Shown here: piece after piece, positions 2,838 to 39,328 of the stretch | How the letters are laid out: the number at the start of each line of letters is the position of its first letter | How positions within the stretch are numbered: the first letter of the stretch is position 1 | Origin: a virus | IMG/VR virus record: IMGVR_UViG_3300006982_000001 | Location: 1-64,000 of that record | Direction: 5' to 3' (one strand) | DNA: 64,000 nt | The notes under the pieces: generated by a model | The model's input: only the letters and a program-made list of their open reading frames with translations | What the model was told of the DNA's origin: nothing | Database searches by the model: none | Translations under genes and position numbers: made by a program

Positions 2838-4050
2838 CAAACCATTAGTTGAGAAGTTTCGTCCGCAAAAATTCGAAGACCTGCAGGGTAATAACTCCGC
2901 GATCAAGTCAATCAGGACGTGGGCTGAGCACTGGGAACGAGGCGACCAGCCTCAGCTCTTGTCCGGTCCGCCCGGTGTCGGAAAGACGTCCACGGCGCAG
3001 GTCGTGGCGAACGAGATGGGCTGGCCGATCACTGAAATCAACGCCTCGGACGCGCGCCGGTCTGATGAGATCGCAGACATCGTGAACGATATGAAGCTGA
3101 CTCCGATCGACGCGGAGCACCAGCTGGTCCTGCTGGATGAGGTGGACTCGCTGCCCGGACGCACGAATCTGACTCCGCTCTACGAGGTTCTGGACGATCC
3201 GCCGAACCCGGTGATGATGGTCTGTAATGAGCCGTGGGACGTCCGATCGGGAATTAAGAGTCGGTCAAAAGAGCACGAGTTCAGCCTCGGTCGCTCATCC
3301 CGTCAGGCGAAGCTCCGGAAGATTGCAAAGGAGGAGGATCTGGATATCGGTGCCGCCAAGATCGGAGAACTGTCCGAGCGTGAGAACCTACGAGACGCGA
3401 TCACAGATCTGCAGATGATGGTCGCCGCTGGTGGTGAAATACTGGAGGACGGTCGAACCTACGAAGATTCACCATTCAGCGCGCTGGACGACATCCGTAT
3501 GGGACGAGGCGTCGACGGTCTGATGGCAGAGACGCCGCCCGATATGCTGATGTGGATGGACTCTGGACTACGCGATCGCTACCGAGGAGTCGAGGCTCAG
3601 GTCGTCTGGGATCTGCTGGCACGATCGGACAAGTGGTGCGCACGCGCGGGTCCGAACAACGACTTCCGATATTGGAAGTACGCCGGCGCTCTGCAGCAGG
3701 AGATAGCCAACGTCCGGCTCACAGATCCTTACGGTGGGTATGTGAACTACGGTGGTCCGACGAGAGTCTACCCACCGAACGCCCAGAGCGACAACGCCGA
3801 GTCCACGCTCTACCGAGAGCTTCAGGGTGAGGACGGACGGTTCGGGATGTCGTGTGAGTTCAACGAGTTCCGCCAGATCTACCTGCCGATGCTGCTGGAT
3901 CTGGACGTCGAGGAACGCTACCAACTCGCAGTTGAATACGACCTCTCGGACAAAGCACAGAAGGCCCTCGACATCGACCCAGACGATCAAGAGGACTGGG
4001 CGACGGAGTCGGGTGAGAAGGTCGAGGAGCAGTCGGTATTTGATTGGTGA
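2830..4050 (+). CDS. RFC-like AAA+ clamp-loader subunit
   Basis: LVEKFRPQKFEDLQGN, Walker A GPPGVGKTS, Walker B LVLLDEVDS; C-terminus EEQSVFDW; ATG 2830 overlaps upstream stop (ATGAGTGA). Confidence 0.85.
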   Translation: MSDKPLVEKFRPQKFEDLQGNNSAIKSIRTWAEHWERGDQPQLLSGPPGVGKTSTAQVVANEMGWPITEINASDARRSDEIADIVNDMKLTPIDAEHQLVLLDEVDSLPGRTNLTPLYEVLDDPPNPVMMVCNEPWDVRSGIKSRSKEHEFSLGRSSRQAKLRKIAKEEDLDIGAAKIGELSERENLRDAITDLQMMVAAGGEILEDGRTYEDSPFSALDDIRMGRGVDGLMAETPPDMLMWMDSGLRDRYRGVEAQVVWDLLARSDKWCARAGPNNDFRYWKYAGALQQEIANVRLTDPYGGYVNYGGPTRVYPPNAQSDNAESTLYRELQGEDGRFGMSCEFNEFRQIYLPMLLDLDVEERYQLAVEYDLSDKAQKALDIDPDDQEDWATESGEKVEEQSVFDW

Positions 4051-4735
4051 TAATATGTACGAACTGATTGACGGAGATATCTTCGATGTTGGCGAGCAGG
4101 TGGTCGGGGAGTACGATATCGATTTGGTGCTTACTGATCCGCCCTATAATATCTCGGGGGATATTGACCTATCTCATTCCGGGATGAACAGTCAGTTTAC
4201 TCAGGACTTCGGTGAGTGGGACCACGATAGCATCGTCCCCGAGATGTGGGTGCCTCTGCTAAATGGTATAGATGGAGCGACTGTTATCTCGTTCTACGAT
4301 AACCGAACGATGGGACGTCTGGTGAGCTGTCTCGCAGAAATACAGATGGATGTCGTTCAGATGGGTTACTGGCTGAAGCCATCCCCCCCGCCGAGGATGG
4401 TCAAGAAAGATCGCTGGATGGATGCTGTAGAGCAGTTCGTGATTGCTTCCGACGATGATGACTGGTTCTTCAACGAAGAACCACCTCAGCAGCAGAATGT
4501 ACTCAGATACCGAAGCCCTCGCGGAGATAAACGCTGTCATCCCAACCAGAAACCCGTAGACTTGTTTGCTGAGATTATTAGATTCTGGTCTGAGCCAGAC
4601 GACGTGGTCTTCGACCCATTTATGGGTTCTGGTACGACGGGAGTCGCTTGTCGTAAAACGGGGAGAGACTTCGTTGGTGTAGAGGTTAACAAAGACTATT
4701 ACGAGCTTGCACAGTCTCGTGTAACAGACGATGTC
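4051..4735 (+). mobile_element. Low-GC methyltransferase gene insertion between the RFC-like gene and its apparently displaced terminal codons
   Basis: RFC ends tcg gta ttt gat tgg tga; MTase ends tct gtg ttc gac tgg tga (same SVFDW*). Confidence 0.4.
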
Positions 4736-6898: not shown

Positions 6899-7129
6899 AT
6901 GGAGACAGACAACGCGGATCCTCTGGGCGAGGCCGTCCGAGATGGTCTGTTCTCCCTCGCGCTCGCCGCTGTCGCAGGGCTGGGCGCGTGGACGCTCCTC
7001 CCACCGATGCCCGGTGGTGAGTGGGCGATGATCATCCGCGGAGTCGTAACGCTCGTGATCGCTGGGATCGTCTTCAGTATCGCGTGGTTCATCACCGTCC
7101 TGCTGACGATGAAGGAGATGGGACTATGA
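6899..7129 (+). CDS. Small membrane protein (2 TM)
   Basis: [18 protein letters not shown] and [21 protein letters not shown]; stop overlaps queE ATG (ATGA). Confidence 0.55.
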
Positions 7130-7917
7130 CTCAGGTCAAGGTGGCCGAACAGTTCTTCAGCATACAGGGAGAGGGACCGTATGCCGGGACGCCAGCAATC
7201 TTCCTCCGCCTCGCAGGGTGCAATCTCTCCTGCGGGTGGATAGACGATCTGGATGAGTACGAGCCGGGCGACGAGCCGCAGGGAGACGCGACGTGGGTCT
7301 GCGATACGATCGACGTCTGGCGTGATCCCGAGAACACCTACGAGCCGATCGAGCTGGTCGAGGAGTGGGAGGACAGAGGGTGGTTCGACGTCCTCCAGAA
7401 CCGGGATGCGCACATCGTCCTGACCGGTGGCGAGCCGACGCTACCGAGTCACCAGATGGCGTTCTTCGACTTCTACCACACTCTGAAAGACGAGATCGAG
7501 ACGCGTCCCTTCGTGGAGGTGGAGACGAACGGGACGCAAGAGATCACCCCGTCCTTCGGAGCTGTGGTTGATCACTTCAACGTCAGCCTGAAACTCGCGA
7601 ACTCCGGGATGTCCGAGGAGCGTCGGCTTACGGACGCGGTCGATCAGTTCGTGTATATGGGCGAGGACGAGGACGACCAGATCCCGCCCGCCGTGTTCAA
7701 GTTCGTCGTCTCCTCCGAGGGCGATATGCAGGAGATCGACTACCTGATCGACGTCTGCGACATCCCCAGAGAGAAGGTGTCCCTGATGCCTGCCGGGCAG
7801 ACTCAGGAGCAGCTTCGTGAGACCTATCCCGTGGTGGCTGAGATCTGTAAAGTGAGGGGCTTCCGATTCAGCCCACGCCTTCACGTAGACGTCTGGGACG
7901 CTGCTACCGGTGTATAG
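7126..7917 (+). CDS. queE: 7-carboxy-7-deazaguanine synthase (QueE, radical SAM)
   Basis: [28 protein letters not shown]...CDT, LTGGEPT; Cys motif interrupted by 20-aa acidic insert. Confidence 0.85.
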
Positions 7918-8686
7918 ATAACACTTAACTACACCCATCAACACTTATCGAGTATGGAGAAGACGAGTATCCAGCTTTCCAAAGAGGTCCGGGATGAGCT
8001 GAAGTCTCTGGGCCAGAAAGGAGAGTCCTACGACGATATCCTACGGAGGGAGTTAGACATCGATGAGTAGTTGTCCCGCCAGTGGTTGCGATTACAATGG
8101 CACTAATCATGGTGTGAAGGTGCATTACGGACGTTCTCATGACGGGACTCTGGCAAAGACGTCTGTATGCGAGACCTGTAGGTGTGAGTATAAGATTCGG
8201 GATGGCAAATCCATCTCAGAATCGAAGTATTGTTCTCTTCCCTGTAAGAAGGCTTCTGAGGCGGGATGCAATACGCTTCAGGGATGGGCGAGAGCACGTA
8301 CAAATCGATGTCAGTGGTGCGATGAGTGGTTTGTTGCTCCACCCGCTGCTGATAGAGAGTTCTGTTCGCGAGAATGTACCGATATCCGTAGATCGGAAGA
8401 GGACATCCTGAGCGGAGACAATCATCCCCGGTGGGTAAGTGAAGAAGCCGATCGATACTGGATGTCTCAGTCGAAGGTTGAACAGGTTGTTCAGAGGGAC
8501 AAGCAATGTCAGATGTGTGGATTAAGTAACGAGGCTCACAAGGTTATGGTAAGCAATCGATTGCACATTCATCATGTGAAACCCCGACGAAAGTGCGAGT
8601 CCAGAGAGGAGGCTAATCAGCTGTCAAACCTCCTTCTTCTGTGTAGTACGTGCCATAATAGGCTCGATAACTTCATACGACAGACA
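7897..8686 (+). mobile_element. Low-GC RHH + ZnF-HNH cassette at the queE 3' end
   Basis: GC drop; queE ends ATGV*, HNH ORF ends QTGV* immediately before PRTase ATG. Confidence 0.45.
7954..8070 (+). CDS. Ribbon-helix-helix small protein, 38 aa
   Basis: MEKTSIQLSKEVRDELKSLGQKGESYDDILRRELDIDE; overlaps HNH start by 8 nt. Confidence 0.5.
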   Translation: MEKTSIQLSKEVRDELKSLGQKGESYDDILRRELDIDE

Positions 8687-8695
8687 GGGGTCTGA
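8063..8695 (+). CDS. HNH homing endonuclease with N-terminal C2H2 zinc finger
   Basis: CPASGCDYNGTNHGVKVHYGRSH; FCSRECTD; NRLHIHHVKPRR...NLLLLCSTCHNRLD. Confidence 0.85.
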   Translation: MSSCPASGCDYNGTNHGVKVHYGRSHDGTLAKTSVCETCRCEYKIRDGKSISESKYCSLPCKKASEAGCNTLQGWARARTNRCQWCDEWFVAPPAADREFCSRECTDIRRSEEDILSGDNHPRWVSEEADRYWMSQSKVEQVVQRDKQCQMCGLSNEAHKVMVSNRLHIHHVKPRRKCESREEANQLSNLLLLCSTCHNRLDNFIRQTGV

Positions 8696-8696
8696 G

Positions 8697-9164
8697 ATGG
8701 TCGAGAAAGAATACGTCGATTGGGGTGAGGCCGAGTCGGCCGCTGTCCAGATCGCCGAGGCCGCCGAGATGATCGACGACCCGGATCATATCGTAGGAGT
8801 CGCTCGGGGTGGGCTTCCGCTGGCCGTGATGGTCAGTCACGAGCTCGACCTGCCGATGACGTCCCTACGCGCGACACACTACGATGGGAAAGAACGGGAG
8901 GACGAGGTCGAGATCCATACGGATGGACTCGATCAGATCGAGGTGGGCGAAACGGTCTTGCTGGTCGACGACGTCGTCGATAGCGGACGAACGCTCCAGC
9001 GGATCACGGAGCTGTGGGATCGCTACGAGGTAGACCATCGAACCGCTGTCTGGCACGAGAAGCCCGACAGCGAGTTCAAGCCGAACGTCTCTATCTCTCA
9101 GACGGATAGCTGGATCGTCTATCCGTGGGAAGAACCGCGCACGATGAGGAACGCAGAACGATGA
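8697..9164 (+). CDS. Type I phosphoribosyltransferase (purine PRTase-like)
   Basis: PRPP loop VLLVDDVVDSGRTL; GVARGGLPLA; size of Hpt/Gpt-like enzymes. Confidence 0.75.
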   Translation: MVEKEYVDWGEAESAAVQIAEAAEMIDDPDHIVGVARGGLPLAVMVSHELDLPMTSLRATHYDGKEREDEVEIHTDGLDQIEVGETVLLVDDVVDSGRTLQRITELWDRYEVDHRTAVWHEKPDSEFKPNVSISQTDSWIVYPWEEPRTMRNAER

Positions 9165-9796
9165 GTCAAGAACCTATGACACAAGAGCACCCGGAGCAGG
9201 ATCCAGCAGAGTACCACTTCCGTCGCTTTATGGAGGAGATCGGGGTCGACCCGGACGGCGACGAGCACCTCGAGGAGACACCGAAGCGAGTCGTCCGATC
9301 CCGTCGCAACGAGCTGTTCGGTGGGAACGGTGACGATCCGGACGAGCATCTGGAGAAGACGTTCGAAGACGTCGAGCAGTACGAGGGCGACACGGGTGAA
9401 TACAGCGGAGACGCTGGCTGGGTGATCGTCGATAACATTCAGGTGGAGTCGATGTGTGCTCACCACTTCTTGCCCTTCCGCGGAGTCGCTCACGTCGGCT
9501 ACATCCCGAAGGACAAGGTCGTGGGACTGTCGAAGCTCGCGCGGGTGACGGACGGGTACGCTCGCCGGCCGCAGGTCCAAGAGCGGCTGACGAATCAAGT
9601 CGCCAACGCCGTCCACGAGAAGCTCGATCCGCTGGCGACGGCAGTAATCATTCGGTCTGAGCACTTGTGTATGACGTGCAGGGGTGTTCAAGAGCCGAAC
9701 TCCCAGACGTCGACAGTAGCGCTTCGTGGTGCTGTAAGAGAAGACGACCCTATGCGAGAAGAGTTCTACAATATCCTTAAGATGCACGAGAGCTAA
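9161..9796 (+). CDS. folE: GTP cyclohydrolase I (FolE)
   Basis: CAHHFLPFRGVAHVGYIP, GLSKLARV, RRPQVQERLTNQ; ATGA overlap with PRTase stop; last ~50 codons are low-GC. Confidence 0.9.
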   Translation: MSQEPMTQEHPEQDPAEYHFRRFMEEIGVDPDGDEHLEETPKRVVRSRRNELFGGNGDDPDEHLEKTFEDVEQYEGDTGEYSGDAGWVIVDNIQVESMCAHHFLPFRGVAHVGYIPKDKVVGLSKLARVTDGYARRPQVQERLTNQVANAVHEKLDPLATAVIIRSEHLCMTCRGVQEPNSQTSTVALRGAVREDDPMREEFYNILKMHES

Positions 9797-10528
9797 TACT
9801 CTCGTAATGGATTGTTCGAAGTGTGGTAAAAGTGTCCAGGATAGTCAGACTCTGGACGAACATCTCGAGCTTCATTCTTCGGGTGAGGGCGTCGAGTGTC
9901 AGGAGTGTGGGTGGCTATACGGTAGCGAGCGTACTCTGAAGTGCCACCATACCAAAAAGCACGGTAAGGACCCGGAGTGGACTACTTACGAGTGTGAGGA
10001 TTGTGGTGTAGAGGTGGGTCACTACTCTGGGGCTGAGGATCGTGTGAGTCGGTTTTGTAGAAGCTGCTATCAGGAACACAGATCTGCTGATACCATCGAC
10101 GTTGAGTGTGAGACTTGTGGAGCAGTTGAGTGCGTACCAGAGTACCTGAGTAGCAGGCGGTTCTGTAGTCCTCAGTGTCGTGCTGAGTGGGTTTCAGAGG
10201 AGATAGCAGGGAGAGATCATCCCAATTGGAAAGGTGGTGAGAGCCAGTACAGAGGCTCTAATTGGAATGAACAGCGTGAGAAAGCTCTAAATCGTGATGG
10301 ACATAAATGTCGTGTCTGTAGAGACGAAGAGCAGCTTATCGTCCATCATATCGTATCGTTTCATGAGTTCGATGGATTCCGTAAGGCGAACGATCTGGAG
10401 AACCTCGCAACGCTCTGTCGATTGTGCCACGGTTATCTGGAGGGTTGGATCAATCGGGAGGATTTGGGTAGACAGGGTCAGAAGACGGCCTTTGAGTTAG
10501 CTGAAGCTGAAACTCGGAGCACCTCTGT
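9640..10528 (+). mobile_element. Homing cassette: recoded folE 3' end plus ZnF-HNH gene
   Basis: GC drop from ~9640; displaced original folE end follows at 10529. Confidence 0.6.
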
Positions 10529-10532
10529 ATGA
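9807..10532 (+). CDS. HNH homing endonuclease with N-terminal C2H2 zinc finger
   Basis: CSKCGKSVQDSQTLDEHLELH; FCSPQCRAEW; HKCRVCRDEEQLIVHHIV...NLATLCRLCH. Confidence 0.85.
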   Translation: MDCSKCGKSVQDSQTLDEHLELHSSGEGVECQECGWLYGSERTLKCHHTKKHGKDPEWTTYECEDCGVEVGHYSGAEDRVSRFCRSCYQEHRSADTIDVECETCGAVECVPEYLSSRRFCSPQCRAEWVSEEIAGRDHPNWKGGESQYRGSNWNEQREKALNRDGHKCRVCRDEEQLIVHHIVSFHEFDGFRKANDLENLATLCRLCHGYLEGWINREDLGRQGQKTAFELAEAETRSTSV

Positions 10533-10663
10533 GCTGCCGGGGTGCTCAGGAGCCTCACTCGAGTACGTCCACGGCAGCCCTGCGAGGGGCCGTCCGAGAG
10601 GACGACTCGATGAAGCGCGAGTTCTACGACCTGATCCAGATGTCCGACAACGGGCGCGTGTAG
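10529..10663 (+). pseudogene. Displaced original 3' end of folE (44 codons)
   Basis: MSCRGAQEPHSSTSTAALRGAVREDDSMKREFYDLIQMSDNGRV*; 26/41 aa identical to folE residues encoded at 9671..9796; GC-rich codons. Confidence 0.8.
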
Positions 10664-10698
10664 GGCCGCGTGTACGGACCTCAGTAGAGAGCTGAGTC

Positions 10699-10748
10699 AT
10701 CCGTCGCGCAAAGGACGGATTCGCTCACAGCGCGTGTGAGCGCTTTTT
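10699..10748 (+). terminator. Two hairpins followed by T5
   Basis: atccgtc-N8-gacggat and gctcaca-gcgcg-tgtgagc then gcttttt. Confidence 0.5.
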
Positions 10749-10784
10749 AGAGGATGGTACGTGTACGACGAGAGGGTAGAGAAC

Positions 10785-10796
10785 CATAGATTTATA
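10785..10796 (+). promoter_or_regulatory. BRE/TATA promoter core
   Basis: CATAGATTTATA; 35 nt to ATG 10826. Confidence 0.6.
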
Positions 10797-10825
10797 GACT
10801 CCGATCCTCTACTGGCAGACGTAGT

Positions 10826-11527
10826 ATGGAGACAAAGACCGACCGTCAGCGAACGATGCTCCTGTTTGGCATCGTCGCCGCGTTCGTGGTATCGCTCGCG
10901 ATCTCTCAAGTGATCGCCTCAAAGCTCGCATCGTACTCACTACCGTGGTTCGGAGTCCTGCTCTACCCGGTAGGCTCGATCACCTACGCCGTCCTCTTCT
11001 TCTGCTCGGACCTGATGTCCGAGATGTTCGGGAAAAAGCGAGCGGCCTATATGGTGAACATCGGGTTCCTGATGAACTTTCTACTGCTCGCCTTCGTCTG
11101 GGGAGCTATCTTCGTCCCGAACTCTGGGGCTGGAGCGAGTCAGGGAGCCTTCGAGGAGGTGCTGACGTCGTCGACGAACATCGTCTTCGCCTCGCTCGGA
11201 GCTTACTTGATCAGCCAGAACCTCGACGTCTTCCTGTTTCACAAGATCCGTGGGATCACCGGGAAGTCGAAGCTCTGGCTCCGGAACATCGCGTCCACGG
11301 GGACGTCGCAATTGGTCGATGCGATCGCTTTCACGTCGATCGCCTATCTACTCCTGCCCGGACTGACGGGGATTGGACAGACGGTACCGATCGAGACCGC
11401 CGTGCTGATCGTGCTCGGTCAATACTTCATCGTCCTCGGAGTCGCCTTCTTGGACACGCCGGTCGTGTACGCCGTGGTCGAGGGGCTGGAGAAGTTCACT
11501 GACCTCGAGCGAGCCGACGTCGAGTAA
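10826..11527 (+). CDS. yhhQ: YhhQ/DUF165-family queuosine-precursor (preQ0/preQ1) transporter
   Basis: Multi-TM; FFCSDLMSEMFGKKRA and ASLGAYLISQNLDVFLFHKIRG...LWLRNIASTGTSQLVDAIAFTSIAY parallel E. coli YhhQ ATDLTVRIFG / ASFMAYALGQILDVHVFNRLRQ...APTASTLFGNVSDTLAFFFIAF. Confidence 0.8.
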   Translation: METKTDRQRTMLLFGIVAAFVVSLAISQVIASKLASYSLPWFGVLLYPVGSITYAVLFFCSDLMSEMFGKKRAAYMVNIGFLMNFLLLAFVWGAIFVPNSGAGASQGAFEEVLTSSTNIVFASLGAYLISQNLDVFLFHKIRGITGKSKLWLRNIASTGTSQLVDAIAFTSIAYLLLPGLTGIGQTVPIETAVLIVLGQYFIVLGVAFLDTPVVYAVVEGLEKFTDLERADVE

Positions 11528-11555: not shown

Positions 11556-11583
11556 GACTTTGATACGGTAGAGGTGAGTGCTT

Positions 11584-11961
11584 ATGCCGCCACAGATTAG
11601 AACAACGTGGGCGAAGGTCAGTCTACGATTCGACGCTCACCACCGATGGGACGAAGCATTCGACGAGGTCGCTTTCCTTCAGAACGAACACCGTCACGAG
11701 TTCCACGTCACGGTACAGGTGCAGCAGTACCACGACGACCGGGACGTCGAATACATCCACCTCAAGCGCCGTCTCCAGAGCTGGATCGAGAACGAGTACC
11801 TACCCGAGGATCGGGATCTGGGTCAGAAGTCCTGCGAGATGATGGCCGAGGACATCCTCGAGAAACTGATCGAGTGGCACGGGAAGGGTCGTGCCTACCG
11901 AATCGAGGTCACGGAGGACGGAGAGAACGGAGCACTGCTCGAGGTGCCGGTCGATGAGTAA
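11584..11961 (+). CDS. Divergent PTPS/QueD-like T-fold protein lacking the catalytic Cys
   Basis: RFDAHHRW...NEHRHEFHVTVQV...SCEMMAEDI...EVTEDGENGA follows QueD layout but CxxxHGH is replaced by LQNEHRH. Confidence 0.5.
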   Translation: MPPQIRTTWAKVSLRFDAHHRWDEAFDEVAFLQNEHRHEFHVTVQVQQYHDDRDVEYIHLKRRLQSWIENEYLPEDRDLGQKSCEMMAEDILEKLIEWHGKGRAYRIEVTEDGENGALLEVPVDE

Positions 11962-19652: not shown

Positions 19653-19816
19653 TGAGCACCACCGACGACGCCTTCGACGGACTGACAGAGCGAGAAGTGC
19701 GCGCGCGTCTGGAGGGAGAGCTGGACGAGCTACGAGCCGACGGAGCCCGAGAGTGCGTCCTCCAAGACGTCCTCTTCGAGCTCGCCAACGAGACCGCCGC
19801 AGCGAGGTGGGACTGA
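19652..19816 (+). CDS. Hypothetical protein (54 aa)
   Basis: TGATG coupling both ends; below cutoff. Confidence 0.4.
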   Translation: MSTTDDAFDGLTEREVRARLEGELDELRADGARECVLQDVLFELANETAAARWD

Positions 19817-20049
19817 TGACCGACGCCGGCCGTCGACGCCTCGAAGACCTCGACGAGCGCGCCGTCCACGCCGCCACAGAGCTGCAAGGAATGGCCGACG
19901 ACGAACTCGCCGAGCAAACCCGCATCGCCGGTCAGGACTTCGACCACCGGGAGTGGATGGAGGCAGAGCTGCAGGAGACGATGGCCGAGCGAGAACGGAC
20001 GCTGGACGTGGTCACCGTGCTGGGCGGAGCCACCTACGAGCAGCCCTGA
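19816..20049 (+). CDS. Hypothetical acidic protein
   Basis: Coupled start; acidic. Confidence 0.5.
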   Translation: MTDAGRRRLEDLDERAVHAATELQGMADDELAEQTRIAGQDFDHREWMEAELQETMAERERTLDVVTVLGGATYEQP

Positions 20050-20160
20050 GGGGAGGGGGGTTAGGCAACGGGCCGCCGATCATCTCGAGGGGGGTTCTCT
20101 GCGGTTCTGAGTCTGTGAAAACGCGATCGGGGGCTCTTCATCGCATCTGCCGATTTTTCA

Positions 20161-20186
20161 CAAACCCGGATTTTGGCAAACCCGGA
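20161..20186. repeat. Direct repeat CAAACCCGGA x2 just upstream of a promoter
   Basis: 20161..20170 and 20177..20186. Confidence 0.7.
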
Positions 20187-20197
20187 ATCCGCTTACC

Positions 20198-20209
20198 TAA
20201 AGATTTATA
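20198..20209 (+). promoter_or_regulatory. BRE/TATA promoter core
   Basis: TAAAGATTTATA; 31 nt to ATG 20235. Confidence 0.6.
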
Positions 20210-20234
20210 TTCATAGGTACTCACTCTCCTTCGT

Positions 20235-20420
20235 ATGAGCACTGAGACAGCCGACGAGTGTGGAGCAGAGTTGAACGGACTGACGTGTCACCGGGATGTG
20301 GGACACGGCGGGCGGCATCAGGCGGACGCGTTCGAGGACGACGGTCACCACGATCTGCAGATTGTCGAGTGGTGGAGCATCAAGCCGAACGGGGATCCGG
20401 TGGAGGACGATGGTGCGTGA
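20235..20420 (+). CDS. Hypothetical His-rich small protein
   Basis: CHRDVGHGGRHQ...DDGHHD. Confidence 0.5.
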   Translation: MSTETADECGAELNGLTCHRDVGHGGRHQADAFEDDGHHDLQIVEWWSIKPNGDPVEDDGA

Positions 20421-21192
20421 GGTAGACGGGATCTACGTGGACGAGTTTCACTGTCCGCAGAACCTTCAGTCCTTCTGGTGGAATCGGCTTCGGAAGCTCG
20501 ACGGCGTCCCTGTCCCGACGACCTATGGAGTGGAGCTGGACGACAACGACGAGCCATCCTATGAGTATATCCTCAAGGTGATGAACCACGAGGGCTGGGA
20601 CCGGGCGTTCATCCGGGGAGACTCGTTCTCCGATAAGGTCAACCCGCGTACCGGCTCCGTAATTCGGGAGGCTGATCCGAGCGAGATCCGTCGGACGGTG
20701 GAGACGCTCACGAACCATCTGATCAACCATATGGACACGCCGATGGGCGAGGCCGTCTTCGTCCGGGAGTGGTTGGATCTGGACTACTGCTCTCGTCCTC
20801 GTGAGTGTACGAACTGGCATCCGACGGAGCTCCGGTTCATCGTGGAGGGCGGTGAGATCCAGTCAGTGAATCCGTCTCTGGAGACACTCGAGGAGCTGAA
20901 CAGGGCGCACGAGTGTACCTACGACTATCTCCGGGATCGGCTGACGGAGTCGGATCTGTCGGAGCCGTGGGAGCACGCGAGGACTGTCGCTGAGGAGTTC
21001 GACGAGTGGGCGTGGCACGTCGATTTCTGTCTGACGACGTCCCTCGAGTGGTACTGTATCGATATGGGCCTGAACGGCGTGTATTGGGACGAGGAGTCGT
21101 CTGAGTGGACGGTGATGACGGGGCAGCCGGAGTCCCTCGAGGAGCAGATGCTGGCGAAGGCTGATCAAGTTCTGGAACCTCGAGACCAATAG
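20410..21192 (+). CDS. Hypothetical protein, possibly ATP-grasp-like
   Basis: AFIRGDSFSDK, VFVREWL, RFIVEGGEI, WHVDFCLT...YCIDMGLNG loosely follow ATP-grasp strand order; weak. Confidence 0.35.
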   Translation: MVREVDGIYVDEFHCPQNLQSFWWNRLRKLDGVPVPTTYGVELDDNDEPSYEYILKVMNHEGWDRAFIRGDSFSDKVNPRTGSVIREADPSEIRRTVETLTNHLINHMDTPMGEAVFVREWLDLDYCSRPRECTNWHPTELRFIVEGGEIQSVNPSLETLEELNRAHECTYDYLRDRLTESDLSEPWEHARTVAEEFDEWAWHVDFCLTTSLEWYCIDMGLNGVYWDEESSEWTVMTGQPESLEEQMLAKADQVLEPRDQ

Positions 21193-21199
21193 ATTTATA
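21188..21199 (+). promoter_or_regulatory. BRE/TATA promoter core
   Basis: AATAGATTTATA; its TAG is the stop of 20410..21192; 35 nt to ATG 21229. Confidence 0.6.
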
Positions 21200-21228
21200 C
21201 TTTTAGCGACTGACGTTCCGGGTGGACT

Positions 21229-21531
21229 ATGGAACAGATCCGTGTTATCACGACGGCGACTGTCCTCACGGTGCGATACAGCGTGGAGGACGCGCAGGAG
21301 GAAAGTGAGGTCGAGTACGAGGTCGAGGCGACGGATGTAGTCGGTCAGGACGTGGCGGGCTCGAGCGTCAAGCTCCAGATCTGGTCGCCGATCTCCCGGA
21401 CTGTCTTCGAGGACGTCCGCGACGAGATCGAGGACGGTGAGATGGACGTTACGGGGCTGATGGTGCCGGAGTACCTGCTCCCTGCCTACATCAACAACTA
21501 CGCCGACGAGCTGGAGGTCTATCCGCTATGA
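21229..21531 (+). CDS. Hypothetical acidic protein
   Basis: Acidic ORF. Confidence 0.55.
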   Translation: MEQIRVITTATVLTVRYSVEDAQEESEVEYEVEATDVVGQDVAGSSVKLQIWSPISRTVFEDVRDEIEDGEMDVTGLMVPEYLLPAYINNYADELEVYPL

Positions 21532-21674
21532 GCACGACGGAGTCCTCGGAGACCGGCCCAGAGGAGTACCGGTGTCAGTCGTGTGGTGACGTCCTCGATA
21601 TCGTGGGACTGATCGAGCACGACTGCGAGGCTGTCCTCTCGGCAGAGGAGCTCTCGTCGCGGAGGTCGACAACA
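21528..21674 (+). CDS. Small zinc-binding protein, 3' end undefined (no in-frame stop before 22400)
   Basis: MSTTESSETGPEEYRCQSCGDVL...HDCEAVLSAEEL then frame becomes Arg-rich; -1 frame ends VAEVDNR* in ATGA overlap with 21676. Confidence 0.4.
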
Positions 21675-21675
21675 G

Positions 21676-21900
21676 ATGAAAGATCGCTACAAAGAGCTGA
21701 TGCGGCGGTCGTTCGGAGACGCCGTCTCGCTGGCCGACGACTTCGAGGAGGAGTACGGGCTACCGGTCACGGACGATATGCTGGTGAATATGGGGATGGC
21801 CCTCTACCAGCACCGCGTCCGGAACTACGAGATGAAGAAGGCCGAGATGAAGTCCGGTGCTCAATTCCCCGAGGGATCTCCGGACGCTGGGAGGTACTGA
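21676..21900 (+). CDS. Hypothetical protein
   Basis: MKDRYKELMRRSFGDAVSLADDFEEEYG...; protein-like composition versus Arg-rich overlapping frame. Confidence 0.55.
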   Translation: MKDRYKELMRRSFGDAVSLADDFEEEYGLPVTDDMLVNMGMALYQHRVRNYEMKKAEMKSGAQFPEGSPDAGRY

Positions 21901-22400
21901 TGGACTTCAACGACACCAAGACGTCCGAGCGACCGGGTACGATGGTCGACGATCTGGAGCCATACGAGAAGTGGGATCTGGTGGCGTGGCCGAAGCCCGG
22001 TTACTCAGGTGACGAGTTCGAACAGGTCTTCGATCGTCTTCGGACGCCTCACATCAACGGGCAGCCGATGCGCGTCGGCTACGTCCAGAAGGTCACCGAA
22101 CACTCCGTCCACGTCCTCGAGGCTGAACCGACTCGATTCGGTGAGGAGAGAGTCCGAGACCCGAGTTTTCAGCACGCGACTCCTGTCCCGAAAGAGGAGA
22201 TCGTGGCGAAGAAGGAGAGGGAGCACAACCCGCGGTATCAGCGCGAGAAGAAGAAGCGAGAGGAGCAGCGACGTCACCGTCAGGCGAATCTGGAGTGGCG
22301 AGAGCTGCCGACGTGGAAGCGGTGGACGTTGTTCCTCACGGGGGCGAAGTACGATTGGATTCACAACCGAGTCACTCAGATCAAGGAGAACGAAGAATGA
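21900..22400 (+). CDS. Hypothetical protein with basic C-terminal region
   Basis: ATG overlaps upstream TGA; KKEREHNPRYQREKKKREEQRRHRQ. Confidence 0.55.
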   Translation: MDFNDTKTSERPGTMVDDLEPYEKWDLVAWPKPGYSGDEFEQVFDRLRTPHINGQPMRVGYVQKVTEHSVHVLEAEPTRFGEERVRDPSFQHATPVPKEEIVAKKEREHNPRYQREKKKREEQRRHRQANLEWRELPTWKRWTLFLTGAKYDWIHNRVTQIKENEE

Positions 22401-26333: not shown

Positions 26334-27213
26334 GGAATACTTCCAAATCCACGTCACCGACACAGAGCGCGATTTTGAGGCTCTGTGCGAGGCTGAGGTG
26401 GAGGTCGATCAGATGGAGGTGTCGGCGACGGGCGAGACGCGGTCGCTGATGTTCTCCAGAGGCGGGCCGATCGAGATCCCGGACGGCGATCCGTTTGCGA
26501 TTCAGGTAGACGAGGAGAACAACCTCAGTCGAACCATCGTCCGGGACTACCACGTCGGAGTGGCCTACTATCTGCACACGCTGGAGACGCACGGTGTGGA
26601 CGAGGAGGCCGCGATCGAGGAACTGTCTGAGCGCGTGGACGTCGCGCCGTTCTTGGAGTGGATCGAGTCCCTAACCGTCAGTGAACGTCAGGTCCGTCTG
26701 TTCGAGCTTCTCGAGTGGCGAGCTGGTGATGGTGGCGATTGGGCTGCCGCGATCTATCTGGACGATCACCCGTGCGAGTTCCGGTCGAAGGAACTCACGG
26801 GGTCCGGGCAGACGCTGGCGGAAGATATCACTCGGCAGATCGACGTCAAGCCGAAGATGTGCTATTGGACAGCCCAGCACGCGGCGATGCTCCACGCCGA
26901 CAATCACCGGGTCGAGTACGCCGAGGGAATCGTCCTCCCGAAACAGGCAGCGCAGTCAGTCCGTCACGCGTGGATCGAGATCGACGGAGAGGTCGCTGAG
27001 ATTACGTGGCCGTGGCACTACCCGGACGGACGCGAGGCGATCTACTACGGAGTCACCGTGGACGCCGAGACCGTGGTAGAGACGCGGGAGCGTCGGGAGA
27101 CGAACGGTTCTGTCCTCCTGACCGACGAGGAGGTGGTGAAGCTCGGTCAGGGGATGCGGCCGGACGACGATCTGATGGACTCACCCGCACTCGTAGACTA
27201 TCGAAATCAATAG
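26326..27213 (+). CDS. Hypothetical protein with transglutaminase-like (papain-fold) Cys...His motif
   Basis: KMCYWTAQHAAML ... RHAWIEIDGEVAEITWPW resembles C...HAWxE core; stop is the TAG of the promoter 12-mer. Confidence 0.4.
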   Translation: MSEEYFQIHVTDTERDFEALCEAEVEVDQMEVSATGETRSLMFSRGGPIEIPDGDPFAIQVDEENNLSRTIVRDYHVGVAYYLHTLETHGVDEEAAIEELSERVDVAPFLEWIESLTVSERQVRLFELLEWRAGDGGDWAAAIYLDDHPCEFRSKELTGSGQTLAEDITRQIDVKPKMCYWTAQHAAMLHADNHRVEYAEGIVLPKQAAQSVRHAWIEIDGEVAEITWPWHYPDGREAIYYGVTVDAETVVETRERRETNGSVLLTDEEVVKLGQGMRPDDDLMDSPALVDYRNQ

Positions 27214-27220
27214 ATTTATA
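27209..27220 (+). promoter_or_regulatory. BRE/TATA promoter core
   Basis: AATAGATTTATA; 43 nt to ATG 27258. Confidence 0.7.
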
Positions 27221-27257
27221 TTCAAGGGGGTATTCTATACAGGTGGAGATAAGAAAG

Positions 27258-27530
27258 ATGTCGACCGCACTCACCCAATCCGACGACGAGCTCACGACCG
27301 CCGAACAGTCCCGAGACAACCGCGCCCGCGATAGTCACGTCACCCTCACCGGTGTCTTCGGAGACGACTTCGTCTTCGACTTCGAGGGGAGCGACGACAC
27401 TCACGTCGTTCACACGTCCGGCAGTGACGCCGAGATGTGTACCTGCCCGGACCACCAGCAGCGGAACGTGCGATGCAAGCATATGGCCGCCTACGAGCGC
27501 TTCAGCTACATCGACGAGTTCGACTTCTGA
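27258..27530 (+). CDS. SWIM zinc-finger protein
   Basis: CTCPDHQQRNVRCKH (CxCxnCxH); GTGGAGATAAGAAAG leader. Confidence 0.65.
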   Translation: MSTALTQSDDELTTAEQSRDNRARDSHVTLTGVFGDDFVFDFEGSDDTHVVHTSGSDAEMCTCPDHQQRNVRCKHMAAYERFSYIDEFDF

Positions 27531-29330: not shown

Positions 29331-29369
29331 AGCGAGTCATCGGTATCGACGTAAGCAGATATCGATACC

Positions 29370-29381
29370 AATAGATTTATA
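29370..29381 (+). promoter_or_regulatory. BRE/TATA promoter core
   Basis: AATAGATTTATA preceded by ATATCGATACC; 43 nt to ATG 29419. Confidence 0.7.
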
Positions 29382-29418
29382 TTCAAGGGGGTAATAGAGT
29401 AGGGTGGAGCTAAGAAAG

Positions 29419-30669
29419 ATGTCGAACGAAGCAAAGCAGCTGATCGCAGAAGCGCTCGAGAACAACCCTGACGGCCTGCAGTTCGAACACCTCGTCCGCG
29501 ATCTGGACGACCAGCTCGACGTCCAGCAGAAGACGATCAAGACGTACATCTACCAGTACGCCCAGAGCGAGGACAGCGGTGGGTCGAAGTGGGTCGCGCA
29601 GATGAAGCCCGAGCATATGGACGCGACGGTGTCCGCGAGCGCGGAGGACGCTGGTCTGACCGAGGGCACCTTCGAGGCGACCGACGAGATCCCGCCGGCA
29701 GTCGGTAAGACGTTCCACGAGATGGAGATCCGCCAGCCCGGTCACCCGAAGGTGCCGAGTACGGGCGAATACATCAAGCGGCCGATGGGTGGTGACGACG
29801 TCGAGGTCGACTTCAACCAGAACGTCACCTTCATCGAGGCACTCACGAAGGCGATCTCCGTCCCCGACTTCCCGGTCCTCGTGATCGGCGAGCCGGGTGT
29901 CGGTAAGAGCTACTCGATCAAGCACGCCTGCGACCAGACGAACACTCCCCACGACCGCGTGAACGCGGGTACGGGCATCCGGAAGGAGCAGCTCGTCGGA
30001 GGGTTCGTCCCGAAGGGCAACGGTGACAAGCTCGAGACCGAACTCGAGAAGGCGGAGGAGCTCGCGAGCAACACCGCGAACCTGACCGTCGCCGACGCGC
30101 TCGAAGCAATCGGCAGCCGGGATCAGTTCGAATGGCAGGACGGCCTGCTCACCCAGCGAGTCCGCAACGGTGGCGTCTTCCAGATGGACGAGCTGAACGC
30201 TGCCCCGCCCGAAGCGACGATGGCACTCCACGGTCTGCTCGAAGACGGTGACAATCGATCGCTCGAGCTGATGGAGAAAGGCGAGGTCATCACGCCTCAC
30301 GAGGACTTCCGGTTCGTGGCGACCCAGAACCCGTCGACCTTCGCTGGTACCCACCAGATGAACGAAGCGTTCGAGACGCGGTTCATCCCGATCGACTGCC
30401 CGGCGCTCGGGCCGCGAGCGGAGAAGGGACTGCTCGTCGACACTACCGACCTGTCCAAGAGCGAGGCTGATGAGCTGGTCGAGATGGCACTCGACCTCCG
30501 CTCGGACGACAACGCGCCGCCGTGCTCGTTCCGACAGCTCAAACAGATCGCGGCGATGAAGGACACGATGGGGATCGAAGGTGCGACCCGGATGATCCTC
30601 CTGTCGAACCTGACGAGCGACACCGCGTCGAGCGCAGTCAACAAGCGACTGAATATGGTGAACTTCTGA
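29419..30669 (+). CDS. AAA+ ATPase, MoxR/CobS (AAA_5)-like
   Basis: Walker A GEPGVGKS, Walker B VFQMDELN, FRFVATQNP, ETRF. Confidence 0.8.
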   Translation: MSNEAKQLIAEALENNPDGLQFEHLVRDLDDQLDVQQKTIKTYIYQYAQSEDSGGSKWVAQMKPEHMDATVSASAEDAGLTEGTFEATDEIPPAVGKTFHEMEIRQPGHPKVPSTGEYIKRPMGGDDVEVDFNQNVTFIEALTKAISVPDFPVLVIGEPGVGKSYSIKHACDQTNTPHDRVNAGTGIRKEQLVGGFVPKGNGDKLETELEKAEELASNTANLTVADALEAIGSRDQFEWQDGLLTQRVRNGGVFQMDELNAAPPEATMALHGLLEDGDNRSLELMEKGEVITPHEDFRFVATQNPSTFAGTHQMNEAFETRFIPIDCPALGPRAEKGLLVDTTDLSKSEADELVEMALDLRSDDNAPPCSFRQLKQIAAMKDTMGIEGATRMILLSNLTSDTASSAVNKRLNMVNF

Positions 30670-30872
30670 GATTGGGAAACGGAGCCCGGTTTCAGGGCCA
30701 CGACCCCGAGGGTAAACACCCGGAGATTACCCTTCCACGGACTTACAGAGAATCGACTCCGGTAGAGAGCCTCTGTGTACGGTTTTCAGCAGGCATACCT
30801 GCACTGAGAAGCCGATCAGCTCCTTACTCGCGACGTCGGTGCCAGATCAGGCCCGAAGGTAGTATCGATACC

Positions 30873-30884
30873 AATAGATTTATA
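30873..30884 (+). promoter_or_regulatory. BRE/TATA promoter core
   Basis: AATAGATTTATA preceded by GTATCGATACC; 43 nt to ATG 30922. Confidence 0.7.
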
Positions 30885-30921
30885 TTCAAGCCCCTGTTAG
30901 ACTCTGGTGGAGCTAAGAAAG

Positions 30922-32214
30922 ATGGCGAACCAAATCATCGACACGGTCAGCACCCGACTACGTCAGCAGCAGGCGACCTCGCCTGAGCGCCGACGCTACC
31001 TCGAACAGCTCGCTCGGTTGATGTGCCGAGAATACTCACCGACGGTCAACTTCCGCGACATCCCGACCGCGCGGTGCCGACACAATCAGGGCGAGATCGA
31101 TATCGACGTCGGACGAGAGATCGTCGACCAGACGGTCACCAGCCTCGCGCCGGACGTCTGGTCGCTGGTTGCTCAGGAGGGACTCATCGTCCACGAGATC
31201 GGGCACGTCCTCTACACCGACTTCGACGCGCACGAGGACATCAAGAACGACCTCGGTATGCAGGAGATGAATGCGTTCCACGACATCGTCTGGAACCCTG
31301 CCGAGGACGCGGCGATCGAGGAGCAGCTCCGATGGAAGTTCGACTGCTCGCGAGAGCTCGACACCTATAACGCGAATCTGTTCACCCGGCAGAAGTCCGG
31401 TGCTCGGAACCTGCCGATCCCGCAGGCGGTCAAGATCACGATCCTCGAGAAGGGTTGCTACGACGCGGGCGCGGTGGACGAGCACGTCAAGGGCGAGCGC
31501 GATCTCGTTCAGCCGTCGAACCGGACGCTGTTCGACCAGACGATCCTCCCGGAGGTCAACTCGATGCTGGCCGACGTGATGACCGAGCCGGATCCGGGCG
31601 AGCGCTACGAACGGATGCTCGAGTTCTGGTACTGGTTGAAGGACCTGATGGCAGACGAGAACGGTAACGACGCTGCGAGTCAGGCTCAACAGGGCGGCGG
31701 CTACGACGATGCGAAGCCTGACGACACGTCCGGGATGACGCCCGGCGAGATGGCCGACGCGCTGGACGACCTCGATGAAGACGACGTCCGCGAGCAGCTC
31801 GAGCAGATCGCCCAGCCACCCCAGCAGCACGATTGGGACGAGATTCTCGACGAGGACGAAGACGACGATGGTCAGGCTGGTGCTGGTGGCGAGGAGGATG
31901 CTGAGGCAGAGGAGGGTGACGAAGACGACGAGCCGTCCCTCGGAGATCTGTTCGGTGATCCGGACGGTGACGACGAGGCAGACGATGGCGACGGTGATGG
32001 TGACGGTCAGGGCGGCGAAGATGGCGACGGCTCTGAGGGCGCTGAGAGCGACGACACGGGCGAGGGTGACTCGTCCGGTGGATCCGGCGGGGATCAGGAC
32101 GGGGACGCTGACAGCGACGGACAGGCGGGCTCTGGAGGATCGTCTGGTGGAGACGGTGATAGTAGCTCAGAGTTTCCTGGTCACGAAGGTCACTCATTGA
32201 TCATCAGAGATTAA
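30922..32214 (+). CDS. HExxH metallopeptidase-like protein with long D/E/G-rich tail
   Basis: LIVHEIGHVLYTDF; C-terminal ~130 aa of DEDDDG/GDGDGDG low complexity. Confidence 0.65.
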   Translation: MANQIIDTVSTRLRQQQATSPERRRYLEQLARLMCREYSPTVNFRDIPTARCRHNQGEIDIDVGREIVDQTVTSLAPDVWSLVAQEGLIVHEIGHVLYTDFDAHEDIKNDLGMQEMNAFHDIVWNPAEDAAIEEQLRWKFDCSRELDTYNANLFTRQKSGARNLPIPQAVKITILEKGCYDAGAVDEHVKGERDLVQPSNRTLFDQTILPEVNSMLADVMTEPDPGERYERMLEFWYWLKDLMADENGNDAASQAQQGGGYDDAKPDDTSGMTPGEMADALDDLDEDDVREQLEQIAQPPQQHDWDEILDEDEDDDGQAGAGGEEDAEAEEGDEDDEPSLGDLFGDPDGDDEADDGDGDGDGQGGEDGDGSEGAESDDTGEGDSSGGSGGDQDGDADSDGQAGSGGSSGGDGDSSSEFPGHEGHSLIIRD

Positions 32215-32900
32215 GTAGGACACCGCCTTAATCTGGAGTGTGCCAAAGTGTCCCACCTGTGGTGCTGATCGGTTCGACCGTGACCGTGATATGAAGATCC
32301 ACCACAAAGCTGCTCACGACAAATCGATTGCTGAACGTGATCGTCAGACCACTGTCGTAGACTGCGATGAGTGTGGTGAAGAGACAGAGGTTCTGAAGTA
32401 CGTCGATGCCGATCATCGGTTCTGCGGGGAGGAGTGTCGTATGGATTGGTTGTCGAGGAGCAGATCTGGAGATTCTAATCCAGCAAAGGATCCGAAGGTC
32501 AGACAGCAGATCTCAGATACTCTCTCCGGACGTTCGTTATCGTCTGAACACCGGCGGAATATCTCGCAGGCTCAGAGTGGGCGTCAAGTGACGTGGAGTG
32601 ACAAACTGAAAGGGCGTCAACCAGCAGATCCGTTCCCGGAGGGTGACGAAAACCCGTCGTGGTCTGGAGGAGAACCGTATGATCCGGGTCCTCTTACTCA
32701 GAAGCAGAAAGAGCTCATCAGAGAATCGAGGGGACGTATGTGCGAGGAGTGTGGGAAGTTGTCCGAGGAGCAGCCAAAGAAGATGTCTGTTCATCACATC
32801 GATAACGATGTCACCAATAACGATGCAGAAAATCTCAAACTGCTCTGTAATTCGTGCCACGCTAAGGAGCACAACTGATCCGGGACTAACACTCCCGGCT
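32215..32900 (+). mobile_element. Free-standing low-GC ZnF-HNH gene between the HExxH and VWA genes
   Basis: GC drop; no flanking duplication seen. Confidence 0.4.
32240..32878 (+). CDS. HNH homing endonuclease with N-terminal C2H2 zinc finger
   Basis: CPTCGADRFDRDRDMKIHHKAAH; FCGEECRMDW; MSVHHIDNDVTNNDAENLKLLCNSCH; GTG start. Confidence 0.85.
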   Translation: MPKCPTCGADRFDRDRDMKIHHKAAHDKSIAERDRQTTVVDCDECGEETEVLKYVDADHRFCGEECRMDWLSRSRSGDSNPAKDPKVRQQISDTLSGRSLSSEHRRNISQAQSGRQVTWSDKLKGRQPADPFPEGDENPSWSGGEPYDPGPLTQKQKELIRESRGRMCEECGKLSEEQPKKMSVHHIDNDVTNNDAENLKLLCNSCHAKEHN

Positions 32901-39324: not shown

Positions 39325-39328
39325 CTCT

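Follow-up and report, generated by a model that had tools for sequence, protein, structure and literature searches.

The DNA analysed here is a 64,000-nt stretch (the window) of a tailed haloarchaeal virus, kin of HVTV-1 and HCTV-1. It encodes a DNA polymerase, terminase, portal and protease together with a tRNA array, and its folE gene lies in a cluster for 7-deazaguanine modification of DNA. Among isolates, HVTV-1, HCTV-1 and HCTV-5 come closest; the cultured viruses HCTV-1 and HCTV-5 have a common host, Haloarcula californiae. Close relatives of the window are metagenomic contigs throughout, mostly short. Scans of IMG/VR with folE and with the HNH protein as queries returned distant relatives only, and a metagenome contig scan with the HNH alignment as query gave one weak match.

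All features at the locus lie on the plus strand. The folE gene (9161..9796) is full-length but hybrid. It matches Pfam GTP_cyclohydroI over profile positions 2-178/179 (E=7.5e-59) and can be aligned with solved FolE structures over its entire length, in keeping with an earlier suggestion that folE is kept intact. Its 5' part (9161..9655), which itself matches GTP_cyclohydroI, has a GC content at third codon positions (GC3) of 0.775, and its 3' end of 46 codons plus stop (copy 1, 9656..9796), which completes the profile to position 178/179, has a low GC3 of 0.585. A preliminary description of the locus had noted a turn to AT-richer codons at about 9640, and GC3 does fall there, from 0.775 in 9161-9640 to 0.558 in 9641-9796. 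A 10-nt spacer (TACTCTCGTA, 9797..9806) separates the folE stop from the gene of a 241-aa zinc-finger HNH endonuclease (9807..10532; Pfam HNH PF01844, E=1.2e-8; PHROG HNH families, E~1e-21), with a GC3 of 0.488. The last 46 folE codons and the HNH gene together form one low-GC block. The two genes have no terminator between them, and transcription of folE therefore probably extends into the HNH gene.

Downstream of the HNH gene lies a second folE 3' end (copy 2, 10514..10663; 49 codons plus stop, GC3 0.844). The preliminary description had correctly recognized a GC-rich folE end overlapping the HNH stop (ATGA) but had set its start at 10529, which is where a 44-aa ORF opens (10529..10663); homology to folE begins at 10514, 15 nt 5' of that ATG, corresponding to 9656 in copy 1. 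The final 19 nt of the HNH ORF (10514-10532: six codons and TGA) are thus folE sequence from the displaced fragment. In an HMM search this ORF does match GTP_cyclohydroI, covering the last 36 positions (143-178) with E=1.1e-4 and 22 bits, which is under the 27-bit gathering score. Counted from the S codon of SEHLCM, 31 of 46 residues are identical between the copies (BLASTP E=1e-25); the 26 of 41 residues first counted were recovered on alignment, with 82 of 123 nt. At the nucleotide level 44 of 138 positions differ, 23 of them at third positions, and the NG86 dS is undefined (saturated). In a window-wide tblastx self-scan ranked with a per-HSP bit-score filter, the pair is the top same-strand short-range protein-level duplication of the 64 kb (84.5 bits; next 51.5). 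Two hairpins and a TTTTT run follow at 10699..10748; both had been described, but the T5 run is not conserved and relatives read CTTCTG. Apart from the start of copy 2, every element of the preliminary description was located where it had been placed.

The status of the two ends is decided by the relatives. The HNH gene is absent at folE in five of them (L013, L014, L020, L021 and L024), and each has a single folE end, never both, which is of the copy-2 type and terminates like copy 2 in ...GRV*. Copy 2 shares 79-82% of its amino acids with the native ends of L014, L020 and L021 and 68% with copy 1. The gene order in L013 and L021 is PRTase-folE-Vut_1, and the distance from the native folE stop to the Vut_1 start is 162 nt in both, as it is in the window when measured from copy 2. 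A hairpin region homologous to 10699..10748 lies 3' of the native stop in the endonuclease-free L013, which identifies that segment of the window as the original region 3' of folE. The earlier proposal that copy 2 is the original gene end is therefore upheld. Removing 9656..10513 in silico yields a 214-aa folE that is nearer to all five endonuclease-free relatives than the hybrid folE is. None of the relatives examined has two folE ends without the HNH gene. In one further contig, L023, folE homology breaks off at the equivalent of window position 9547, with no Rfam match and no in-frame continuation.

Occupancy is sporadic, with the HNH gene absent in these five relatives and present in the window, L016/L017, L015, L018 and L019. 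L016 and L017 come from two samples, are 100% identical to each other and have the same junction as the window, as does L015, from a lineage that is ~72% identical. The comparison of the window with L016 is strongly mosaic. Upstream there are 8 mismatches in 950 nt (0.8%), and the resident folE 5' part is ~99% identical up to ~9596. Across 9561-10505 there are 171 mismatches in 945 nt (18%), with 82% identity over ~9597..10509, and across copy 2 only 3 in 185 nt (1.6%), copy 2 itself being ~99-100% identical. A second divergent patch lies outside the cassette at 10691-11060 (36 mismatches in 370 nt). L019 gives the reverse picture, with 2 mismatches in 576 nt within the block (99.7% identity) on a backbone that is 73% identical. 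Given that the same backbone carries different cassettes and the same cassette sits on different backbones, these alignments show the replacement end and the HNH gene to be one unit whose history differs from that of either flank. Across the window, L016 and L019, copy 1 varies together with the HNH gene and not with the backbone, and TSTVALRG and MR.EF..ILK are common to the copy 1 sequences of three lineages; by this pattern of variation and by its GC3 (0.585, against 0.844 in copy 2), copy 1 is of foreign origin.

Taken together, the empty alleles, L016, L019 and L015 show, at the level of allele comparison, that the mobile unit consists of the replacement folE end plus the HNH gene, as had been suggested from the window alone, and identify copy 2 as the original end, now displaced. 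The inserted unit would span ~858 nt (9656..10513), comprising the replacement end, the spacer and all but the last 19 nt of the HNH gene. It has a sharp right edge, with the final mismatch between window and L016 at 10509 and the onset of folE homology at 10514. The left edge is variable, at 9597 or 9635 depending on the comparison, and ~20-60 nt of resident folE travel with the cassette, which makes the last ~20-60 nt before 9656 a variable crossover or co-conversion zone. In L019, 17 nt of upstream sequence are available and contain 3 mismatches, so that few sites lie beneath its left edge. The insertion point falls between the R and S codons, just 5' of the EH-x-CM motif that is conserved in solved FolE structures. 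The preliminary description had gone further and seen in the replacement end a recoded version of the presumed cleavage site. The alleles do not support this: near the junction, no more than two nucleotide positions differ consistently between occupied and empty sites, and we therefore make no claim about a recognition site or immunity. An Rfam search of 9400-10900 found no family at E<=1, and with no ribozyme family in that interval we rejected a group I or group II intron; an intein was rejected because folE has its own TAA stop (9794-9796) and the HNH gene its own ATG (9807).

Both parts of the unit appear to be maintained by selection. Copy 1 is under purifying selection, as judged from a dN of 0.046 and a dS of 1.2 against the copy 1 of L016. 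Four HNH variants have identical catalytic residues (H180/H181, N195/N199 and H208) and identical zinc-binding Cys pairs (C168/C171 and C204/C207), and a dN/dS of ~0.1 (0.09-0.11) shows past purifying selection on the HNH protein. The GC3 of all four variants is 0.45-0.51, that of folE ~0.76. An apparent HNH frameshift in L016/L017 was dismissed: the ORF is intact at 241 aa, and the gene caller had picked an internal ATG. Three cassette variants have the end of their HNH ORF within copy 2. The remaining two occupied alleles are different. The HNH gene of L019 is truncated, and copy 2 is absent from both L018 and L019, though the cassette or part of it persists. L018 has an HNH gene without the displaced end, with ~40 unique nt matching nothing else, and its HNH frame also terminates in host terminator sequence. 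The truncation in L019 and the missing end in L018, whether ancestral or derived, are what would be expected of stages in the life cycle of a selfish endonuclease gene.

We consider it likely that folE was invaded by a free-standing homing-endonuclease cassette that carries a replacement folE end and displaced the original one. The resident 5' part of folE would read into the replacement end to give a full-length enzyme, and the original end, with its downstream hairpins, would have been pushed past the HNH gene. We infer that the cassette spread by homing: the endonuclease would cut the empty folE allele of a co-infecting virus somewhere near the junction, and the occupied allele would serve as the repair template, with the resident folE 5' part as left homology arm and the displaced end as right arm. 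A left arm within folE would explain the fuzzy left edge (9597-9640), and a right arm in the displaced end would explain both the sharp right edge (10510-10513) and the constant match of copy 2 to the recipient backbone. The differences in the replacement end may in addition shield the occupied allele from recutting.

A one-time illegitimate insertion of the replacement end and HNH gene, followed by ordinary recombination during co-infection with the nuclease as a passenger or inactive, could produce a similar mosaic. Haloviruses and phages are strongly mosaic, the patch at 10691-11060 shows window/L016 divergence outside the cassette, and no target site can be inferred from comparing occupied and empty alleles. 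However, the mosaic edges coincide with the element edges (10509/10514 on the right, 9597-9640 on the left), the HNH gene has kept its catalytic residues under purifying selection, and a single junction is kept across HNH variants with dS >1. Phage nuclease genes at recombination boundaries have also been ascribed to homing (PMC10448857), and overall we regard a passenger nuclease as unlikely. That copy 2 is retained for a function, be it as a 44-aa peptide whose translation the ATGA overlap may couple to that of the HNH gene, as supplier of the HNH stop or terminator, or as a needed right homology arm, is improbable as well. It is missing in L018 and L019 although the cassette or part of it stays, a 44-residue C-terminal fragment cannot be an enzyme alone, and the comparable native C-termini in Glomus are transcribed in some cases only (PMC3630166). 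These points stand against an open frame in the window, L016/L017 and L015, the use of copy 2 by three cassette variants to end the HNH ORF, and a dN below dS against native ends; a fragment that was displaced only recently would show low dN/dS in any case, because until then it belonged to a working gene. If the folE 3' end had been duplicated in tandem within this genome and had diverged in place, with the HNH gene inserted later, copy 1 would be native and two similar ends in direct orientation 858 nt apart would be accounted for. We find this very unlikely, given that synonymous divergence between the copies is saturated where the window/L016 flanks are ~1% apart, that copy 1 has the low GC3 of the HNH gene and co-varies with it, and that two ends without the HNH gene occur in no relative. 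Finally, an assembly artefact fusing folE alleles of different viruses is scarcely credible: although the window and all its close relatives are metagenomic assemblies, four assemblies that are independent of one another have this junction (samples 3300006999, 3300007029 and 3300005193 among them), and an analogous arrangement exists in the cultured, fully sequenced HCTV-1.

Invasion of folE by a homing cassette can be set beside several known systems. In Aeromonas phage Aeh1 the HNH gene mobE reportedly splits nrdA into two polypeptides that reassemble, as described by Friedrich et al. in 2007. There too an HNH gene has entered a conserved metabolic gene of a phage with no intron or intein involved, but nrdA is split, whereas folE is kept whole by the replacement end that the cassette carries. 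Group I intron and intein homing endonuclease genes (HEGs) resemble the folE cassette in occupying a conserved catalytic coding position (here EH-x-CM) and in having a device that spares the host gene; introns and inteins restore function by splicing, the folE cassette in DNA by a duplicate end. The T4 seg/mob and ICP1 HEGs are likewise free-standing, adjoin an essential or conserved gene and show presence/absence polymorphism, with co-converted flanks and the nuclease at the edge of the recombination tract (PMC2790892, PMC10448857). They are, however, intergenic, and their homing just replaces flanks, whereas the folE insertion is intragenic with a duplicated end; a displaced duplicate of the target-gene end is not described for them (PMC2790892, PMC10448857).

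A fuller parallel is found in the mobile ORF (mORF) hybrid genes of fungi: Allomyces macrogynus atp6, Rhizopus oryzae atp9, Mortierella verticillata cox2 and Glomus sp. atp6/atp9/cox2/nad3 (PMC3630166). As in folE, a gene core is followed by a foreign in-frame C-terminus, an endonuclease ORF and the displaced native C-terminus, and the native end groups with relatives while the inserted end stands apart (PMC3630166). Nucleotide identity between the two ends is 60-70% in both systems, for example 63.5% in Glomus atp6 (PMC3630166) and 68% in folE, and the complete replacement of the native end in Glomus atp9 (PMC3630166) can be compared with L018. The fungal endonucleases are LAGLIDADG or GIY-YIG enzymes in mitochondria, whereas the folE case is a zinc-finger HNH protein in an archaeal virus, and activity has been demonstrated for the Allomyces mORF (PMC3630166), whereas the folE HNH is a putative nuclease. 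Unlike in the fungal mORFs, the HNH ORF is separate, with a stop and a 10-nt spacer before it, and ends at a stop codon that belongs to the displaced end. We found no report of this arrangement in the literature on phages and archaeal viruses.

A mirror-image case is present in HCTV-1, where a related ZnF-HNH gene lies at the 5' end of QueE and would take its start codon and 20 residues from the displaced native QueE terminus; the site is occupied in HCTV-1 and empty in HCTV-5. Self-scanning the whole HVTV-1 genome revealed no duplicated gene end next to its HNH genes, and hence the arrangement is not general in the virus family. Tentatively, the ZnF-HNH genes of haloarchaeal tailed viruses may be an unrecognised class of 'self-complementing' homing cassettes, which would invade the terminal ~20-50 codons of a conserved gene from either side, folE and QueE both being genes of the 7-deazaguanine DNA-modification pathway, bring a recoded replacement terminus and draw translation signals and a homology arm from the displaced native one. 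If so, entering coding sequence with neither intron nor intein would be routine in archaeal viruses, and possibly a weapon against the DNA-modification genes of a co-infecting rival.

For annotation, short 'hypothetical' ORFs such as 10529..10663 can be displaced gene ends, and chimeric gene ends can distort the trees of folE and other viral auxiliary genes. The HCTV-1/HCTV-5 pair makes homing of the QueE cassette directly testable, and at folE empty, occupied, truncated and cleaned-up natural alleles are available together. The cassette points to a third harmless route into a gene beside the intron and the intein, in which a spare gene end is carried along. This strategy is known mainly from fungal mitochondria, and its occurrence in archaeal viruses, where another nuclease family is involved, suggests that it is convergent and may be under-annotated.

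The folE gene of the window (9161..9796) encodes a complete GTP cyclohydrolase I (Pfam PF01227, E=7.5e-59, profile positions 2-178 of 179) and is followed, after a spacer of 10 nt, by a 241-aa ORF (9807..10532) with N-terminal zinc fingers and a C-terminal HNH motif (PF01844, E=1.2e-8), the gene order proposed in the preliminary description. The TGA of this HNH gene overlaps the ATG of a 44-aa ORF (10529..10663), which was checked for FolE similarity and aligns to the final 36 positions of that profile at E=1.1e-4, under the gathering score. Aligned from this ATG, the two folE ends are identical at 26/41 aa, which reproduces the earlier count, and at 82/123 nt. The second end had been thought to begin at the HNH stop: the ATGA overlap at 10529 is real, but the homology extends 15 nt further upstream, to the Ser codon of SEHLCM (9656 in the first copy, 10514 in the second; 31/46 aa, E=1e-25). 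The pair is the top short-range same-strand protein duplication of the whole window (84.5 bits). GC3 falls from 0.775 in folE 9161-9640 to 0.558 in 9641-9796, in keeping with the AT-richer end described from ~9640, and is 0.488 in the HNH gene and 0.844 in the second end. Two hairpins and a T5 run are present at 10699-10748, also as described. We refer to 9656..9796 as copy 1, to 10514..10663 as copy 2 and to 9656..10513 as the cassette, consisting of the replacement folE end, the spacer and the HNH gene minus its last 19 nt.

The window is part of the genome of a tailed archaeal virus and codes for a DNA polymerase, large terminase, portal, prohead protease and DNA ligase, along with a dense array of ~22 tRNA genes on the + strand (39251-41976, also 37293-37367). 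An identical folE product is recorded from a 104-kb JGI metagenome contig, and the closest cultured relatives are the haloviruses HVTV-1, HCTV-1 and HCTV-5 (~102 kb; folE ~60% aa identity). Within the window folE sits in a 7-deazaguanine cluster that starts with a QueE-like gene (7126-7914) and has a phosphoribosyltransferase (PRTase) gene directly before folE (8697-9164), then a Vut_1/YhhQ-type transporter gene (10826-11527) and a QueD-like PTPS gene (11578-11961). The sequence AACCATAGATTTATAGAC (10780-10799, TTTATA at 10791-10796), ~30 nt upstream of the Vut_1 start and nearly invariant in the window and the metagenomic contigs L013, L016, L018 and L021, is probably the archaeal TATA-box promoter of the Vut_1 gene.

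A protein search yielded folE relatives of 75-87% identity and four close HNH relatives, and the contigs were sorted into four classes. Five are empty, that is, without the HNH gene (L013, L014, L020, L021, L024); these were checked for a second folE end, and each has a single one, terminating ...GRV* as copy 2 does. L013 and L021 keep the PRTase-folE-Vut_1 order of the window, and the native stop lies 162 nt from the Vut_1 start in both and, counted from copy 2, in the window; in L013 the hairpin region lies 3' of the native folE stop. Occupied alleles with a displaced end are found in L016/L017 (two samples, 100% identical to each other) and in L015, whose lineage has only ~72% identity to the window and whose displaced end has the same register (..AEHECMSCRG...NGRV*) and an equivalent overlap with the HNH stop. 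L018 is occupied without a displaced end: the equivalent of window ~10468-10735 is missing and the HNH gene continues directly into the 3' arm of the second hairpin. In the truncated L019, the cassette ends abruptly at 10210. In-silico removal of 9656..10513 (858 nt) restores a 214-aa folE that is 4-10 residues nearer each empty-site relative than the real hybrid folE. At the level of sequence comparison, copy 2 is shown to be the native folE end; the ...GRV* ends and the 162-nt spacing agree with its earlier reading as the original gene end. The truncated HNH gene of L019 and the lost displaced end of L018 fit the invasion-decay-loss cycle of a selfish endonuclease.

Another contig, L023 (JGI 3300006999; 959-1159), carries a folE relative (81% aa identity) whose homology ends abruptly at window-equivalent 9547, after ...LSKLARV. 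The remaining 200 nt gave no match among the sequences fetched and no Rfam family, and L023 is either another folE interruption or an assembly chimera.

Alignments to L016 and L019 show a separate history of the replacement end and HNH gene. The window and L016 differ at 8 positions in 950 nt over 8611-9560, at 171 in 945 nt over 9561-10505 and at 3 in 185 nt over 10506-10690, which contains copy 2. Position 10509 holds the last mismatch before copy 2, and the folE homology begins at 10514, which makes the right edge sharp and places it at the insertion junction. On the left the transition is gradual (first clustered mismatches 9597-9649), as would be given by crossover within homologous folE sequence. 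Conversely, the window and L019 show 2 mismatches in 576 nt across 9635-10210 and 3 in the 17 nt just upstream of 9635, and the downstream backbone of L019 is only 73% identical. These mismatch patterns therefore reveal one backbone with different cassettes (L016) and one cassette on different backbones (L019), which is the signature of a mobile unit; judged from the alignments, its right boundary is the junction and the right flank, copy 2, is the recipient's. Both mosaics agree with the proposal of a unit made of a substitute gene end and an endonuclease gene. GC3 of all four HNH variants is 0.45-0.51 vs ~0.76 for folE, and the HNH catalytic and zinc-binding residues are invariant. With dN/dS of 0.09-0.11 at dS 1-2 between variants, the endonuclease has been a working protein through most of its history. 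Copy 1 is likewise under purifying selection between the window and L016 (dN 0.046, dS 1.2), as expected of an expressed gene end. A second divergent patch between these two, 10691-11060 (36 mismatches in 370 nt, ~1% either side), extends over the hairpins and ~235 nt at the start of the Vut_1 gene; 185 nearly identical nt separate it from the cassette, and it may be an independent recombination tract.

The cassette lies between Arg and Ser codons just ahead of an EH-x-CM motif that is conserved in solved FolE structures (AEHMCM, AEHLCM). We take its His-x-Cys to include a catalytic His and a zinc-ligand Cys (E. coli H179, C181); if so, the insertion point would be invariant coding sequence, a typical target of homing endonucleases. 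The HNH frame crosses the junction, reads six displaced-folE codons out of the folE frame and terminates at the TGA within ATGAGC (C-M-S), and the HNH frames of L016 and L015 do likewise. The cassette thus has no endonuclease stop codon of its own. No terminator-like site was found between folE and the HNH gene, so co-transcription of the two is likely.

We infer spread by homing. The endonuclease would cut the empty folE allele of a co-infecting virus, and break repair would copy the cassette from the occupied genome, with the 5' part of folE as left and the displaced end as right homology arm. Such two-arm repair would explain why the left edge varies, why the right junction is invariant and why copy 2 always matches the local backbone. 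The preliminary description also suggested that the replacement end recodes the presumed cleavage site. Copies 1 and 2 differ at 44/138 nt, 23 of these at third codon positions; a comparison of three cassette variants with four empty alleles leaves only 2 positions near the junction that are consistently occupied-specific, and recoding of a cleavage site is accordingly still hypothetical. Apart from this proposal on immunity, the preliminary description is confirmed as an observation and supported as an interpretation.

A mirror image of the folE case is found in HCTV-1 (KC292029.1). The first 20 codons of its HNH gene 70 and the upstream region are the native QueE 5' end, matching the QueE 5' end of HCTV-5, and downstream of the HNH body QueE gene 69 starts anew with an AT-rich recoded copy of these codons (GC 0.42; copies at 3444-3503 and 4097-4156). 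In this virus the endonuclease gene takes over its start codon and N-terminus from the displaced end, and a replacement 5' end is part of the cassette; the junction is once more preceded by a conserved motif (..QGE|G..). The site is empty in HCTV-5 (~2604-2706) and HVTV-1. No such case turned up when the whole HVTV-1 genome was scanned, so the arrangement is recurrent but not universal.

Several other loci were noted. A second HNH gene of the window (8063-8695, low GC of 0.49; PF01844, E=7.8e-9), with a 38-aa ORF (7954-8070), is inserted between the QueE-like and phosphoribosyltransferase genes, which directly adjoin in L014, L020 and L021; no gene-end duplication was found there. Between the DNA polymerase and RFC-like genes, a short zinc-ribbon ORF (2040-2147; MGTNCPDCGRQLKRRAPNFLENVRRREIEDGRTK*) recurs at 57% aa identity in the C-terminal part of the 2271-2837 ORF (low GC of 0.46), the N-terminus of which resembles the C2H2-like fingers of HNH proteins; this locus may be another such cassette, or a degenerate one. 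A third zinc-finger-HNH-related ORF (~32240-32875) has 22-28% aa identity to the other two. A DNA-level repeat of ~90-100 nt, matching in all frames, occurs three times on one strand, 1.5-2.2 kb apart (~27186-27292, 29347-29457, 30856-30960). In HVTV-1 (19663-22369), the large terminase gene (110) lies between HNH genes 109 and 111, which are paralogous and have similar ends (64 bits).

An intron is ruled out, no Rfam family being found at E<=1 in 9400-10900, as is an intein, folE having its own stop. Free-standing phage endonuclease genes (T4 seg and mob; ICP1) likewise show presence/absence patterns and sit at recombination boundaries, but they lie between genes and leave no duplicate (PMC10448857, PMC2790892). 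The folE cassette shares its architecture with the mobile-ORF hybrid genes of fungal mitochondria, the order being resident core, inserted foreign C-terminus, endonuclease ORF and native C-terminus; the earliest account of these concerned Allomyces macrogynus atp6, whose endonuclease was biochemically shown to mobilise the element, and later ones Rhizopus atp9, Mortierella cox2 and four Glomus genes (PMC3630166). The fungal elements carry LAGLIDADG or GIY-YIG nucleases, whereas the folE cassette has a zinc-finger HNH nuclease, resides in an archaeal virus and, unlike them, borrows its stop codon. Our literature search found no description of this arrangement for phages or archaeal viruses, which does not prove its absence. 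In kind the folE cassette is a known element; an archaeal virus is an unusual host for it, and its nuclease is of another family. It is well delimited and backed by natural alleles for each stage of the life cycle.
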